From contig JBCCHT010000023.1 of the NCBI GenBank assembly GCA_039028615.1, positions 128,001-192,000 of the forward strand: 64,000 bases of DNA, written 5' to 3'. The DNA comes from Myxococcota bacterium (lineage in GTDB: Bacteria; Myxococcota_A; Polyangia; Nannocystales; Nannocystaceae). Below, piece by piece: positions 14,802 to 20,133 of the stretch. The notes under the pieces were generated by a model. The model saw only the letters and a list, made by a program, of their open reading frames with translations, searched no databases and was not told the origin of the DNA. A program made the position numbers and the translations under genes. Each line of letters begins with the position of its first letter. Within the stretch, counting starts at the first letter, position 1.

Positions 14802-15770
14802 ATGCAATCACGTCCCCTTCGAGTCCTCATGGCCGGAACGCTGGCCGCGGCCTGTTTCGGTAGCCTCGCCTGCGACCCGCCGGTCTTCACCCCGTTCCCC
14901 GAGGCCGACCTCTACTACACGACCTTCAACTCGGTCCGCATGATCGACACGATGGGGGACGAGCACACCGTCTACGCCCCCAGCGGCGCCGACTTCTTCG
15001 GACTCGAGCTCGAAGGCAACTCGGTCTTCGTGGCCGACAACGCGCTGACCTTTCGCGGTTTTCAGCCCAACGACCAGAACCTGTCGATGAACCCCGACTG
15101 GGACGCGTGCTCGCCCAACGGCGTCACCTGTGACGCGGCGACGGACATCGAGCTGATCCCCGGGCTCGACGACGCGATCGCCTGCGCCGACGAAGCGGTC
15201 GTCTACGTCAACATCCCGGGCGCCTCGAGCTTCGGCGGCGGCACCCGGGCCTCGGTCATCACGCAGGCCGACGACGTCGCGCTGCCCTTCAGCGTCGCCA
15301 TCAACGATGCCCGATATGCCTTCGTCGTCGGCGTGGACGAGATGTCGGTCACCGACCTCAACGACCCCATGTTCAACACCGCGCCCGTGACCGGTCATGG
15401 CCTCACCCTCGGTGGTTTCTCGGTCTTCGACCCCGCGGGCAACTTCTACGTCTGTGATCCGGGCGCGGACGAGATCCGCATGTACACCGCCGCGCAGATC
15501 ACCGACATCATGTTCGACCTCGACAACGGCAACACCATCACCGAGCCCATGGCCGTGCTGTCCACGGGTGGCTTGCTCGCAGGGAGCATGGGTGCCGATG
15601 CCAGCGTGCGCGGCCCGGTCGGCATCGACTTCCGCGGCGGCATGCTGTGGGTGACGGTCGATGTGGGTACGGGCATGGCCGGGCACATCGTGCAGGTCGA
15701 CCCGGCCGACGGGGCGCAGACGATGTGGCGGACGGGCCTCGAAGGTCCGCGAGACATCCACATGGACTGA
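14802..15770 (+). CDS. Lipoprotein, beta-propeller-like (NHL/SMP-30-like)
   Basis: SLAC lipobox; FDPAGNFYVCD, GPVGIDF, GLEGPRDI repeats. ATG 14802 preferred. Confidence 0.75.
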   Translation: MQSRPLRVLMAGTLAAACFGSLACDPPVFTPFPEADLYYTTFNSVRMIDTMGDEHTVYAPSGADFFGLELEGNSVFVADNALTFRGFQPNDQNLSMNPDWDACSPNGVTCDAATDIELIPGLDDAIACADEAVVYVNIPGASSFGGGTRASVITQADDVALPFSVAINDARYAFVVGVDEMSVTDLNDPMFNTAPVTGHGLTLGGFSVFDPAGNFYVCDPGADEIRMYTAAQITDIMFDLDNGNTITEPMAVLSTGGLLAGSMGADASVRGPVGIDFRGGMLWVTVDVGTGMAGHIVQVDPADGAQTMWRTGLEGPRDIHMD

Positions 15771-15828
15771 ATCCGTACCAAAGGCCGATGCCCCGCCGAG
15801 GGCCGTCTGCTACGATCCGGTGGTTTCG

Positions 15829-17337
15829 ATGGTCCCTCGTTCGGTGCCGTTCGCATGTGGCCTGCTCGGCCTCGCGTCGTGCGGACCGAGCGTGAACCCC
15901 CCCAGTGGCGCAAGCTCGGGTTCGGACACGGGCGCATCCCAGAGCGCCGAGTCGACCGGGCTCGAGGATCCCTTTGGCCTCGAGCCCTTCGGCGGCGGCA
16001 GTCGGCTGCTCGCGCGCGTGCTCGAGGTCCCGGGTGGCGCTCGCCGAGTGCAGGCGTTCCACGACCAACAGCTCGGCATCGACTGCCGCATCTTCGACAC
16101 GCCGCAGGGCCTCCACTGTCTGCCCACTACCGAAGACCTGGGCATTGCGAGCGCCGACGGGCCGCTGCTGTTCGCGGACAGCGAGTGCACCATCCCCGCG
16201 CTGAAGGTACCCGCGGGCTACCCCGTTCCGAGCATCACCTCGCTGCGCCCAGGCGATCTGTTGACCACGCCCTTCCCGGGGCGCTGTCCCGGGCTGCCTC
16301 ACCGGGCAACGGTGCATCGGCTCGTCCGCGAGGTCTCGACCGCCTATCGCGGCGAAGACTGCGAGTCCGCCTCGTCTCCCGACGATCGGGTGTACTCCCT
16401 CGAGGAAGTCGACCTGAGCATGTTCGTGGCGGGGCAGCTGGTCGACGCCGACGGCATTCGCCGACTCGTCACCGACGATGGAGCCTGGCACAACGCGTAC
16501 CCGCTCGACGATGCCGGGCAGCCCTGCAACGTGGGGTGGGTCGACGGGGAGACCATGTGCAGCCCGCTACGGATGCCGCTCGCCGGCCTCACCGACATGA
16601 CGTGCCACGAGGGCAGCGCGGGTACCTGTGACGGGCAGCGAGTCGCCAGCTCTGTAGACATCCCCGACTACTGCGACCACGACCCCCCGTTCGCGTTTTC
16701 GTACACGGACGACCCCTGGGCCCATCTGTATTACCCCGTGGTCGGCGTGACGGAGTCCGCCGAGTGCTCGGTCGGCGGCGAATGTGGGCCCGCCGAAGAC
16801 CGCGCCACGTTCAGCGGCCCACCGCTGTTGGTGGGTGAACCGGTGCTCGACCCGGGCTTCCCCGCGGTGGAGGTCTTCGAGCTCGGTGAAGGCCCGGTGG
16901 TGGCCGATTGGATTCGGCGCTTCCCGGGCGATCCACCCAGCGGCTTCGGCATGCCCAGCGAGCTGGACGGGTTCTTCGACACGCGGCTCGGCTCGGACTG
17001 CTACCCCGAGGCGGTCGACGACGAGTGGTGGTGCCTGCACCCTCTGACCGTGTGGGTCGACGAGTGGGTCAACTTCTCGGACTCCAATTGTCAGCACCCC
17101 GTGCACGCCGTGAACCGCAACGTCAGCACCTTGATGCTCACGGGTGAGGCTGCGGTCGAAGGGGCCGGCCTCCACGGCCACTCCTATTGGACGGTCGACA
17201 TCCTCGAGAACGAGACCGTCTACGAGATGTTCTACGGCGAGTGTCGCGTCGACCCGGTCACCCACGGCTCCAGCTTTGCTCGCCCGGTGGCCGAGCTCGC
17301 GATCGAGCCGATCCGCATCACCGAGCATCTCGAGTGA
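15829..17337 (+). CDS. Cys-rich hypothetical lipoprotein with internally repeated domain
   Basis: LASC lipobox; FHDQQLGIDC...FADSEC and FFDTRLGSDC...FSDSNC repeats. Confidence 0.8.
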   Translation: MVPRSVPFACGLLGLASCGPSVNPPSGASSGSDTGASQSAESTGLEDPFGLEPFGGGSRLLARVLEVPGGARRVQAFHDQQLGIDCRIFDTPQGLHCLPTTEDLGIASADGPLLFADSECTIPALKVPAGYPVPSITSLRPGDLLTTPFPGRCPGLPHRATVHRLVREVSTAYRGEDCESASSPDDRVYSLEEVDLSMFVAGQLVDADGIRRLVTDDGAWHNAYPLDDAGQPCNVGWVDGETMCSPLRMPLAGLTDMTCHEGSAGTCDGQRVASSVDIPDYCDHDPPFAFSYTDDPWAHLYYPVVGVTESAECSVGGECGPAEDRATFSGPPLLVGEPVLDPGFPAVEVFELGEGPVVADWIRRFPGDPPSGFGMPSELDGFFDTRLGSDCYPEAVDDEWWCLHPLTVWVDEWVNFSDSNCQHPVHAVNRNVSTLMLTGEAAVEGAGLHGHSYWTVDILENETVYEMFYGECRVDPVTHGSSFARPVAELAIEPIRITEHLE

Positions 17338-17369
17338 TCGAGGTGTGAGTTTTGCGGAATACTCGGTGC

Positions 17370-17397
17370 TTGAATCGGCGGCGAATCCCCGTAGGGT
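17370..17397 (+). promoter_or_regulatory. Putative sigma70-type promoter for the leader-aspS transcript
   Basis: TTGAAT (17370-17375) - 16 nt - TAGGGT (17392-17397), 30 nt before the leader ATG. Confidence 0.45.
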
Positions 17398-17427
17398 CAA
17401 ATTAGGCGACCCCTGAAAGGACCACGC

Positions 17428-17472
17428 ATGGACCACGACGACGACGGTGATGATCGGAGGGGGCGCGCCTAG
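17428..17472 (+). CDS. Asp-rich leader peptide MDHDDDGDDRRGRA
   Basis: ATG GAC CAC GAC GAC GAC GGT GAT GAT CGG AGG GGG CGC GCC TAG, preceded by SD-like GAAAGGA. Six of the first nine codons are Asp, directly upstream of an AspRS gene. Confidence 0.85.
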   Translation: MDHDDDGDDRRGRA

Positions 17473-17547
17473 ATTTCATTTCACGAATCGGCCCCGGGCG
17501 CGTGCCCTCGCGTGCAACGACCGCGGGCCGATCGAAGGAACGAAATC
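17457..17547 (+). promoter_or_regulatory. Putative translational attenuator (RBS-sequestering hairpin and competing stem)
   Basis: Sequestering stems: GATTTC 17472-77/GAAATC 17542-47, TTTC 17479-82/GGAA 17537-40, ATCGGCCC 17487-94/GGGCCGAT 17525-32. Competing stem: 17457-69/17497-509. Confidence 0.75.
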
Positions 17548-18855
17548 ATGGAGAACAACCGAATTCGCACCGTACAGGTGCGTCAGCATATTGGTGAGCG
17601 CGTCACGATCTGCGGCTGGGTGCACGCGATACGACGCCTGGGCAAAGTCGCATTCGTCATCGTCCGCGACGGCTTCGGCACGATTCAGGTCGTGGCGAGT
17701 CGAGCGGCGCTGGCCCCCTTGGAACGTACGCGGGCCGGCCCCGAGTCGGTCGTACGCATTGAGGCCGAGGCGGTCGCCAATGCGGGCTCCCCCGGCGGCA
17801 TCGAGCTGGTGGCGCCGCAGATCGAGGTCTTGGTGCCCGTCACCGAGCCCTTGCCCGTCGAGCTGAACAAGCAGCTGCGCACCGCCAAGCTGCCCACGCT
17901 GCTCGACCATGCGCCGACCGTCCTACGGGCACCGACTCGGCGAGCGGTGCTCGAGCTTTCGGCCGGAGTGATGGCCGGCTTTCGGCACACGCTCACCGAG
18001 CGGGGCTTCACCGAGATCCAGACGCCGAAGCTGGTGGGCGCCGCGACCGAGAGCGGCGCCAACGTGTTCGCACTCGAGTACTTCGGAGGGCATGCCTACC
18101 TGGCCCAGAGCCCGCAGCTGTACAAGCAGATGATGGTGGGGGTGTTCGAGCGGGTCTTCGAAGTCGGCCCCGTGTTTCGAGCCGAGCCGCACGCCACGGT
18201 TCGTCATCTATCGCAGTACGTCAGCCTCGACGTCGAGCTCGGCTTCATCGAGGACCACGGCTGCGTGATCGAGCAGCTCGAGGCGGTCCTCGCGGGCATC
18301 CTCGAGACTCTGCGAGCACGGTGCAGCCCGGCCCTCGAAGCGCTGGAGGTCGAGCTTCCCGCCGTCGAATCGCCGCTGCCGAGGATCGAGTTCGGCGAAG
18401 CGCGGGCCATGCTGGCCGCCGAGGGCATCGGGCCGCGTGAAGCCGAGGACCTCGCTCCGGCCGAGGAGCGCTGGCTGGGGCAGTGGGCGCAACGCGAGCA
18501 CGGCAGCGCGTGGTTGGTCGTCACCGGCTATCCCATGGCCAAGCGTCCCTTCTACACGCACCCCGCCCCGGGTCGCCCGGAGGTCTCGAACTCGTTCGAC
18601 CTGTTGTTCCGGGGCACCGAGCTGGTCACGGGAGGTCAGCGACTGCATCGCCACGAGGCACTGCTCGCGGCGATGAGCGCGGCGGGGGTCGACCCCCTAC
18701 TGCTGGCCGGCTACCTGGAGTCGTTTCGCTTCGGTATGCCTCCGCACGGTGGTTTCGCCATCGGGCTCGAGCGCTTCGTGACGCAGCTGCTCGGTCTCGA
18801 CAACATTCGGCTCGCGACGTTGCTGCCGCGCGACCCCGGACGGCTCACCCCATGA
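17548..18855 (+). CDS. aspS: Aspartate--tRNA(Asp/Asn) ligase, archaeal-type non-discriminating AspRS
   Basis: 435 aa; OB fold GWVHAIRRLGKVAF, FTEIQTPKL, YLAQSPQLYKQ, FRAE, GMPPHGGFAIGLER. No bacterial GAD insertion; short NAGSPGG loop. Confidence 0.93.
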   Translation: MENNRIRTVQVRQHIGERVTICGWVHAIRRLGKVAFVIVRDGFGTIQVVASRAALAPLERTRAGPESVVRIEAEAVANAGSPGGIELVAPQIEVLVPVTEPLPVELNKQLRTAKLPTLLDHAPTVLRAPTRRAVLELSAGVMAGFRHTLTERGFTEIQTPKLVGAATESGANVFALEYFGGHAYLAQSPQLYKQMMVGVFERVFEVGPVFRAEPHATVRHLSQYVSLDVELGFIEDHGCVIEQLEAVLAGILETLRARCSPALEALEVELPAVESPLPRIEFGEARAMLAAEGIGPREAEDLAPAEERWLGQWAQREHGSAWLVVTGYPMAKRPFYTHPAPGRPEVSNSFDLLFRGTELVTGGQRLHRHEALLAAMSAAGVDPLLLAGYLESFRFGMPPHGGFAIGLERFVTQLLGLDNIRLATLLPRDPGRLTP

Positions 18856-18984
18856 ACCGAGCGGGCGCGGGTGCTCGGGGCCTCAGCCCTGGGGGCCCGC
18901 GCCCTCCCGCGCTCGACCTTCGATCGAAACCAACTGCAGTCGACGGTAGTGCCTCTTCCGTCGGCCAGATACGATGGAAAAATC

Positions 18985-20133
18985 GTGAAGTCCGGTGCGT
19001 TGATCAAGGGCGTCCTGTTGCTCGGCTCGTTGCTGCTCGGGGGTTGTCCCGGCTCGTCCGGCAGCGGGGACTCGGCGGCCGCCGACGACGGGACCAACGA
19101 GACCGGAGAGCAGGAGCCCTCGGTCGGCCCCGACGGCACCGTGTGCGCGCCCGGGTACACCTGCTGGGCCGATCCGAGCGACGACGTCGTCTGGGTCATG
19201 AAGGACGACGGCAACGTCAACGGCCCCTCGTGCAAGTCCGTGTGCGAGAACGCCTTGAGCGACAACTGCGAGTTCAACGGCTGCGATGCCGGTCGAGCCG
19301 TCGCGTATACCGATATCCCCAGCTTCGCCCCGGTGGCGGAAGGGCTCGGCTTCAGCTGTCGCGAGGGCGGATGCTGGTGGCCCGACGCTCCCGGCGAGGG
19401 CCTGTATCTCGTGTCGATCGATACCGACGAGGACGGCAGCAAGTCCTGCTACTTCCCCACCCAAGAGCAGCTCGAGTGCAACACACACCCCGGCAACGCC
19501 AACTGCTTCGGTGAGCGCTACGCGGCCGTGTGCCCCTGCGTTCCCAAGGAGCTCGACCAAGCCTGCGAGTGGGAGTGCCCGCCTCAACACACCACGCGCG
19601 CGACCTGGAAGACGGACGGCACCAGCTGCGTCGAGCGGATCAACTACTGGCGTCGGGTCGCATGCGAAGAAGGCTGGGTCGAGTGTCCGCCCGCTGGCCT
19701 TCCGCCCATGGTCGAGTGCACCGCGTGCCACGAGTGCGCCAACTCTGAGGCCCAGTACGACTCGGAGAACGGCGCCCACGCCTCGTTCGGTCGCTGCGGC
19801 GAGAACGTCCAGGGCGAGGGCGGAGGCGCGACCTGTGCCGACGTCATCGACTCGTTCGTCAGCGAGCGCGCTCCCGACGAAGACGGCGTGATGCGCTGCC
19901 AAGGCCACTGCGGCCCCATCCTCGCCCCGGGCTGCCAGACCTTCTTTTGGGGCAAGGCCATGGACTCCGGCTTCCACACGCTGAACTGGCGCTCGTGCAA
20001 CGTCGAGGCCTGCACGTCGTACTGCGACGAGAACCCGGGCGATTGTTTCACGCACGAGACCTCCCCGGACCTGACCTGCGACGACCCCGACGAAGGGGCC
20101 GAGCCCGGCCCGGACATCCTGGCCTGCGGCTGA
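18985..20133 (+). CDS. Cys-rich lipoprotein with CAP/SCP-like C-terminal region
   Basis: LGGC lipobox after GTG 18985; CVERINYWR...AHASFGRCGEN...GH pattern. Confidence 0.7.
   Translation: MKSGALIKGVLLLGSLLLGGCPGSSGSGDSAAADDGTNETGEQEPSVGPDGTVCAPGYTCWADPSDDVVWVMKDDGNVNGPSCKSVCENALSDNCEFNGCDAGRAVAYTDIPSFAPVAEGLGFSCREGGCWWPDAPGEGLYLVSIDTDEDGSKSCYFPTQEQLECNTHPGNANCFGERYAAVCPCVPKELDQACEWECPPQHTTRATWKTDGTSCVERINYWRRVACEEGWVECPPAGLPPMVECTACHECANSEAQYDSENGAHASFGRCGENVQGEGGGATCADVIDSFVSERAPDEDGVMRCQGHCGPILAPGCQTFFWGKAMDSGFHTLNWRSCNVEACTSYCDENPGDCFTHETSPDLTCDDPDEGAEPGPDILACG

Follow-up and report, generated by a model that had tools for sequence, protein, structure and literature searches.

An aspartate-rich leader ORF precedes the aspartyl-tRNA synthetase gene found at 17548..18855 on the forward strand of the window (the whole stretch of 64,000 nucleotides analysed here), and the leader region is probably a ribosome-dependent translational attenuator that, as modelled from predicted folds, would sense charged tRNA(Asp) and control a spare aspartyl-tRNA synthetase (AspRS2). 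The ORF, its conservation, the two helices, their co-variation, their mutual exclusion and the spacing of the elements are all supported by computation, and from these we infer leader translation, ribosome stalling, the direction of control and a lasting open state. The first-pass annotation of this DNA had proposed a ribosome-dependent attenuator that senses Asp-tRNA(Asp), a proposal now supported by conservation, by co-varying alternative helices and by the Asp-specifier T-boxes found on homologues.

Leader ORF and upstream signals

The leader ORF comprises 14 codons (17428..17472, forward strand, with its ATG at 17428 and its TAG at 17470-17472) and has a Shine-Dalgarno-like site, GAAAGGA (17415..17421, forward strand), 6 nt ahead of its ATG. 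Asp codons occupy positions 2, 4, 5, 6, 8 and 9, six within the first nine (four GAC and two GAT), and would be the sensing codons; the leader stop and the synthetase ATG (17548) are 75 nt apart. The sequence bears out the earlier description of this Shine-Dalgarno-like site, of the 14-codon ORF with its six early Asp codons and of the 75 nt that separate it from the synthetase ATG. Across 6,661 crude gene calls, upstream ORFs of 8-25 codons with at least three Asp among their first ten codons were found in 12 cases, with at least four in three cases and with at least five in a single case, which is the aspS leader at 17428..17472.

Further upstream lies a sigma-70-like promoter candidate (17370..17397, forward strand), made of TTGAAT (17370-17375), a 16-nt spacer and TAGGGT (17392-17397), and transcription would start near 17404, about 25 nt upstream of the leader. 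This site, which the first-pass annotation had also pointed out, is under the threshold of the consensus promoter scanner, by which no site was returned, yet a TTG-N3-N16-TA-N3-T motif occurs 28-32 nt upstream of the leader ATG in all six loci of the host order and in none of 28 coding-region controls (one control was a locus from an unpublished genome, which was used nowhere else). An alignment of promoter regions (A2) gave no information because the spacings vary among loci. In L175-L182 and L190, the -10 element ends just 9 nt ahead of the leader ATG, so that their leader mRNA would be nearly leaderless.

Conservation of the leader

Genome searches yielded 38 loci, of which eight duplicates, three without a 5' end and the one from the unpublished genome were set aside, leaving 26 distinct published Myxococcota loci, the window locus included. 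An ATG-started leader of 12-17 codons containing Asp codons is present in 25 of these 26 loci, so the search for Asp-rich uORFs upstream of orthologous genes that had been suggested as a test came out positive; the lone exception is L184, in which no Asp leader was found. Eighteen of the 25 leaders contain 3-7 Asp codons and seven contain two, and the last Asp codon lies 5-7 codons ahead of the stop in 24 of them. Among distant homologous loci (<47% identity), a uORF with three such Asp codons was found in 1 of 99. The Caldisericota/Cryosericota clade of archaeal-type AspRS (L050, L053, L059, L065-L067, L078 and related loci from metagenomes) showed no Asp leader and no T-box motif.

Judging from sequence comparison, selection on the leader looks like coding constraint, because the window leader differs from that of L082 by five synonymous and one non-synonymous codon changes, the leader of L083 is longer by 9 nt inserted in frame, and all three stop codons occur among the 25 leaders (TGA 16, TAG 5, TAA 4). 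Asp makes up 99 of their 342 residues and Asn 9, the latter being absent from the six leaders of the host order. GAT represents 39 of the 99 leader Asp codons, as against 49 of 350 in the aspS genes of the same loci and 21% in the host genome, and at least one GAT is present in 24 of the 25 leaders. Most of L175-L182 and L190 have a single GAC-GAT pair, and this pair is invariant in all 13 rows of an alignment of related loci (A1).

We consider it nearly certain that the ORF at 17428..17472 is a real, conserved regulatory leader. A random origin of the ORF in GC-rich intergenic DNA would fit the genome-wide frequency of Asp codons in the host (6.9%) and the fold of the entire leader region, which is only modestly better than that of shuffles (z -1.5), but no other such ORF was found among the 6,661 gene calls, and its conservation, with the signs of coding constraint described above, makes this reading untenable and next to impossible.

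The synthetase gene and the host complement

The product of the gene at 17548..18855 (forward strand, 435 aa) was assigned by family profiles to the auxiliary archaeal-type aspartyl-tRNA synthetases, with scores of 518.6 bits for NCBIfam PRK05159 (cut-off 353) and 390.5 for TIGR00458 (cut-off 368.4). It lacks the GAD insertion, as members of the archaeal-type family do, and its best solved relative, with which it is colinear, is T. thermophilus AspRS2 (1n9w, E 1e-115). According to our reading of tblastn hits and translations, the host genome (G000) also encodes a bacterial-type AspRS (contig C44) and an AsnRS (contig C20); gatB is present and two asnB are above cut-off. The aspartyl-tRNA synthetase first annotated downstream of the leader is thus indeed an AspRS, and is a spare enzyme of archaeal type rather than the product of the housekeeping aspS, a bacterial AspRS being encoded elsewhere in the genome.

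The same holds for most carriers of the archaeal-type gene, as bacterial aspS was found in nine of ten other genomes (the exception being an 84% complete assembly), and the other carrier genomes tested contain asnS (5/5) and asnB (4/5). One Kofleriaceae-family genome, G483, has two asnS matches above cut-off, on C82 and C72. Archaeal-type aspS is patchily distributed: it was found in 7 of the 73 genomes of the host order, which we presume to be Nannocystales, in 16 of 401 when the class was sampled and in 4 of 401 when the phylum was sampled. In the family of G483, which is Kofleriaceae by its record and belongs to the same class as the host, 10 of 138 genomes carry it. The neighbours of the gene vary between loci; a Pfam scan of 35 of 46 neighbour ORFs found neither GatCAB nor Asn synthetase, and two of the scanned ORFs are GNAT acetyltransferases on the opposite strand. 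The flanking same-strand ORFs at 18871-20133 and 15661-17337 gave no Pfam or NCBIfam match. The former, which is Cys-rich, begins 15 nt past the stop of aspS, with which it may share a transcript.

T-boxes on homologues and the nature of the signal

Homologues from Chloroflexota and Actinomycetota have T-boxes where the leader would be. RF00230 was matched in all six homologue loci tested by E-value (2e-17 to 1e-6), all of them under the gathering score; at the gathering score itself, none of 14 homologous loci gave a T-box call. Using an assumed specifier-loop pattern to scan for GAC and AAC, we obtained GAC in 20 of 34 T-box-motif loci and AAC in none, while 13 gave no match over 520 nt and in one the sole match was inside the leader; the three Rfam alignments displayed have GAC at the specifier position. 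The window leader has no Rfam match (17200-17700, up to E 10) and was thus not called a T-box. T-boxes induce on uncharged tRNA. GAC specifiers on the one hand and leader Asp codons on the other point to tRNA(Asp) charging as the likely common signal.

Both kinds of sensor can be met at one locus. In L002:2451-2880 (Ktedonobacteraceae), an Asp-specifier T-box is followed by a 17-codon Asp leader and then by a hairpin with a U-rich tail, that is, two sensors in series, and L005 combines a T-box motif with an Asp leader (a motif-level call). Past the T-box motif of L040:2864-3160, an Asp-run ORF without early stop continues out of frame into aspS and is possibly a decayed or altered leader. When the leader label was mapped on a quick tree of 86 proteins, it changed six times, at least three of these changes being forced by well-supported branches, which suggests that T-box and leader sensors were exchanged or lost more than once.

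His26 and Pro82 of AspRS2 match T. thermophilus AspRS2 and not the discriminating archaeal enzyme; we take them to be residues of the non-discriminating type of AspRS, charging both tRNA(Asp) and tRNA(Asn). His26 is retained in 10 and Pro82 in 20 of the 25 leader-bearing enzymes. AspRS2 is more likely a backup for Asp-tRNA(Asp) than a source of Asn supply, because of the GAC specifier, the leader Asp codons, the incomplete retention of these two residues and the presence of AsnRS in the hosts tested. In its Table 1, a 2022 review (PMC9437257) gives duplicated AspRS no auxiliary function.

Predicted sequestrator and anti-sequestrator helices

In the predicted closed state, a long irregular hairpin (17472..17547, forward strand, -39.1 kcal/mol), which we call the sequestrator, forms past the leader; in its lower stem, a pyrimidine-rich stretch past the leader stop pairs with the aspS Shine-Dalgarno and spacer, so that the Shine-Dalgarno-like site (17534..17539, forward strand, 8 nt ahead of the ATG) is mostly paired. 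Predicted folds of the different families have a common plan despite differing sequences, the 3' arm of the hairpin containing or abutting the aspS Shine-Dalgarno. The alternative is an anti-sequestrator helix between segment 2 (17457..17470, forward strand), at the 3' end of the leader, and segment 3 (17496..17509, forward strand), which is located in the hairpin apex when the latter is closed. The two segments form 13 core pairs (segment 2 with 17496-17509), and the 2:3 helix and the sequestrator hairpin are predicted to be mutually exclusive. At the window locus the 2:3 duplex has an energy of -30.7 kcal/mol, as compared with -21.7 +/- 2.9 for shuffles, none of 200 shuffles equalling it. 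With segment 2 taken across loci as the 18 nt downstream of the last Asp codon, the duplex was better than shuffles (at most 10 of 200 as good) in only 15 of the 25 loci.

Co-variation was assessed over the 25 loci by an alignment-free swap test, in which cognate partner strands are compared with strands exchanged between loci. For the 2:3 helix, the cognate strands won in 248 of 261 locus pairs, and for the sequestrator base (5' arm and RBS) in 265 of 291, while three controls gave 125/271, 163/262 and 103/271 (38-62%); as the loci are kin, these locus-pair counts overstate independence and are not probabilities. In alignment A1 (13 related loci), 91% of cells pair and eight double-sided changes are seen, a result not reached by any of 500 shuffles; MAFFT put segment 3 out of register there, which left just four 2:3 pairs open to column counting. 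At the window locus, the 5' UTR is also predicted to pair with segment 2 in a 1:2 helix (-19.3 kcal/mol), but a general 1:2 protector is unsupported over the 25 loci (swap test 156/261, control 183/261).

The upper stem is strongly conserved among Kofleriaceae-related loci, and columns 37 and 75 of A1 are mismatched in 11 of the 13 loci, the two others having a G-C pair there; this retained mismatch could mark a contact with protein or a tertiary contact. E. coli ThrRS binds its own mRNA in the autoregulation of thrS, and the hairpin could likewise be a protein-binding operator (for instance for AspRS on its own mRNA) or the leader a nascent-peptide arrest motif, the Asp run being secondary. 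The conserved upper stem with its retained mismatch would suit the former, the Arg found as penultimate residue of most leaders would suit the latter, and Leu codons of the actinobacterial LEU element are reported to be irrelevant to regulation in PMC1262725. Against this, it is the Asp codons and their spacing that are common across families and not the stem sequence, the predicted folds have no common anticodon-like loop, and the terminal Arg codon is part of segment 2. In L182 and L192, Ser or Asp codons take its place and the partner strands still pair, so that the constraint on the terminal Arg looks like RNA pairing. A C-terminal arrest motif as main constraint was rejected on this ground, and we regard an operator or arrest motif as very improbable overall.

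Position of the ribosome and stability of the open state

The folding of the leader region was computed over the 25 loci with a moving ribosome, counting the bases it covers as lost pairs. In nascent RNA extending up to segment 3, with a 13-nt footprint, the 2:3 helix of the window locus has a probability of 0.98 when the A site is on codons 2-7, of 0.30 on Asp8, of 0.12 on Asp9 and of 0 from codon 11 onward; a footprint of 10 or 16 nt moves this boundary by one codon. The low values for Asp8 and Asp9, like the presence of only two Asp codons in seven of the 25 leaders, speak against the model. The 2:3 helix likewise exceeds 0.5 in 21 of 25 nascent RNAs when the A site is one codon ahead of the last sensing Asp, and reaches at most 0.35 in the 25 loci when it is two codons past it. 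In this model, the 2:3 helix would be able to form only with the ribosome at or before the last Asp codons. Imposing it lowers the opening energy of the RBS in 22 of the 25 loci (3.5 instead of 6.6 kcal/mol at the window locus), a comparison that is partly circular because the helix is forced.

At equilibrium, the full-length RNA favours the closed hairpin in 24 of 25 loci, and with a stalled ribosome the 2:3 helix exceeds 0.5 in just one locus of 25 and has a probability of 0.00 at the window locus; equilibrium folding with a moving ribosome thus gave no clean switch. According to a rough estimate that allows a pseudoknot, with an assumed penalty of 9.6 kcal/mol, the open state is still less stable in 25 of 25 loci, by a median of +13 and by +9.7 kcal/mol at the window locus. 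Since the closed fold wins at full length, the open state must be kinetic, or the output differs from the one that we infer. The window RBS is not unusually closed, with an opening energy of 7.7 as against a genome median of 8.8 (36th percentile, 120-nt window); the median of the 25 leader loci is 12.0.

The RBS is also easier to open with a ribosome on the leader stop, at an energy of 4.7 kcal/mol for the window locus and of 2.5-4.5 in L175-L180. This is what a coupling of opposite sign would need, in which ribosomes completing the leader melt the hairpin base and production of the non-discriminating enzyme is confined to times of ample Asp, for instance to supply GatCAB-dependent Asn synthesis, a role for which the presence of gatB and the resemblance of His26 and Pro82 to T. 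thermophilus AspRS2 could also speak. Such coupling nevertheless leaves the co-varying 2:3 helix without a role and is at odds with the Asp specifier of the homologue T-boxes, given the sense in which T-boxes respond to uncharged tRNA; moreover the host already holds AsnRS and two AsnB, and most leader-bearing enzymes have not retained His26. We find it decidedly unlikely and retain starvation-induced opening as the preferred direction of control.

Probable translational output

No terminator-like site was found at the window locus, where no U-tract follows the hairpin, which runs into the Shine-Dalgarno and start codon. Using the same genomes of the host order as above, we found rho in none of the 73, near-closed ones included, with a search control detected in 8 of 14; tblastn of the host genome with Rho from G788 gave only two weak matches (24-28%), and rho was not found in the three genomes of the family of G483 that were tested. 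From these searches the host order appears to have lost Rho, and a literature search on such a loss in these bacteria returned nothing relevant. Among ten leader-bearing genomes from other groups, six do encode Rho. A Rho-dependent (tna type) output was rejected for the host order on the basis of the genome search and tblastn, and a classical terminator-type attenuator (trp, his, pheST) is disfavoured by the absence of a hairpin with U-tract ahead of aspS. Given that there is no U-tract and that rho was not found in the order, the output is probably translational, and sequestration of the Shine-Dalgarno, not a pheM-type terminator, is most likely in view of the predicted folds. The parallel with pheM drawn in the first-pass annotation holds for the cognate leader and probably fails for the terminator.

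The same Asp sensing could still act on transcription, with the hairpin as a U-poor intrinsic terminator or a strong pause and the 2:3 helix as antiterminator. A decision taken once, during transcription, matches the fact that 2:3 is favoured only in nascent RNA; 91 of 145 strong hairpins behind host genes have at most three T in the tail window, and a U-rich stretch stands behind the equivalent hairpin of L002. U-tract terminators are nonetheless common in the host genome, for example behind several tRNA genes, and besides the lack of a terminator-like site at the window locus and of a detectable rho in the host order, the 3' arm enters or abuts the Shine-Dalgarno and start codon with a lineage-specific complementarity that a terminator would not need. 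Control of transcription is in our opinion unlikely, and we keep control of translation in the scheme that follows.

Proposed mechanism

When Asp-tRNA(Asp) is plentiful, the ribosome would pass the Asp codons and cover segment 2, the long hairpin would fold past the stop and bury the aspS Shine-Dalgarno, and little AspRS2 would be made. When it is scarce, because of Asp starvation or because the housekeeping AspRS is inhibited or overloaded, the ribosome would wait on the Asp codons, leaving segment 2 free to pair with segment 3 as soon as the latter emerges from RNA polymerase, when some 35 nt remain to be transcribed up to the aspS start. The 2:3 pairing would block closure of the hairpin, and aspS would be translated. 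The open state would persist as a co-transcriptional kinetic trap, possibly with the support of a pseudoknot.

Comparison with known regulatory systems

The classical leader-peptide attenuator is that of E. coli pheM-pheST. Predicted leaders also precede trpS and leuS (PMC1262725) and hisS (PMC2965389). Like these systems, the window has a short ORF with cognate codons ahead of a synthetase gene, and the 3' part of the leader is predicted to form a 2:3 helix that excludes a downstream hairpin; it differs from them in the amino acid, which is Asp, in the hairpin, which lacks a U-tract and covers the Shine-Dalgarno, and in that a general 1:2 protector is unsupported. In Streptomyces, TrpRS1 is under the control of a leader with cognate codons. 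This indolmycin-resistant auxiliary enzyme is listed in PMC9437257 and is, like AspRS2, a spare synthetase beside a housekeeping one and behind a cognate-codon leader, whereas AspRS2 is a class II enzyme of archaeal type with a probably translational output, and of the two only TrpRS1 is known to resist an inhibitor.

The output is closer to that of ermC-type leaders, described as atypical leaders that control translation without amino-acid specificity (PMC2965389). In these, stalling of the ribosome changes the pairing of the helices so that a masked Shine-Dalgarno is released; the window element is likened to them by its predicted folds. Its trigger would however be starvation for the cognate codon and not drug-dependent nascent-peptide arrest, and its open fold is not favoured at equilibrium. 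With the Asp-specifier T-boxes of the homologues, the window element has in common the gene family and the putative signal, tRNA(Asp) charging, although its sensor would be the ribosome. Sequestration of the Shine-Dalgarno is also the output of the translational ileS T-boxes of Actinobacteria (PMC1262725), and exchange between T-box and leader is known for hisS (PMC2965389). The LEU element of Actinobacteria, as presented in PMC1262725, resembles the window element in its cognate-codon leader, alternative folds, possible pseudoknot, involvement of the Shine-Dalgarno and absence of a terminator; its run of Leu codons pairs with the Shine-Dalgarno, whereas in the window the anti-Shine-Dalgarno is located past the leader stop and the strand that switches is downstream of the Asp codons.

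As in leader-peptide attenuators, the uORF has its own RBS and cognate codons, is conserved and has mutually exclusive helices at its 3' part, and as in translational attenuators, a predicted hairpin sequesters the Shine-Dalgarno of the regulated gene. On these folds, the element would combine the workings of a leader-peptide attenuator with an output of ermC type, and would fall outside the classical terminator, Rho-dependent and T-box classes. We found no published Asp leader ahead of aspS in a search that covered few subscription journals. There was none in sections of PMC1262725, PMC4206432, PMC9437257, PMC11109978, PMC2494555, PMC4833913 and PMC2965389, and 'aspS' is absent from the main text of PMC5737381, whose supplement may describe an aspS RNA motif.

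Biological significance

Microcin C acts as an Asp-adenylate mimic against AspRS. We tentatively consider, as a possible though rather doubtful extension of the model, a role in rescue instead of in a nutrient circuit: leader and AspRS2 would constitute a mobile cassette, induced when charging or decoding of tRNA(Asp) fails and governed by a metastable, possibly pseudoknotted and purely translational attenuator in an order apparently devoid of Rho. The trigger would then be an attack on the housekeeping AspRS by microcin-C-type Asp-adenylate mimics of prey or competitors, or damaged or under-modified tRNA(Asp). This reading would fit the scattered occurrence of the gene, its variable neighbours and the over-representation of GAT in leaders (39/99 against 49/350).

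If the attenuator is confirmed, aspartate would be added to those amino acids which leader peptides sense, and a cognate-codon attenuator would be found with sequestration of the Shine-Dalgarno as its output. The element, of about 170 nt, could act as a biosensor for AspRS inhibitors. For the family itself, a single group of synthetases would make use of two interchangeable sensors of tRNA(Asp) charging, the T-box and the ribosome, both of which are found in L002.
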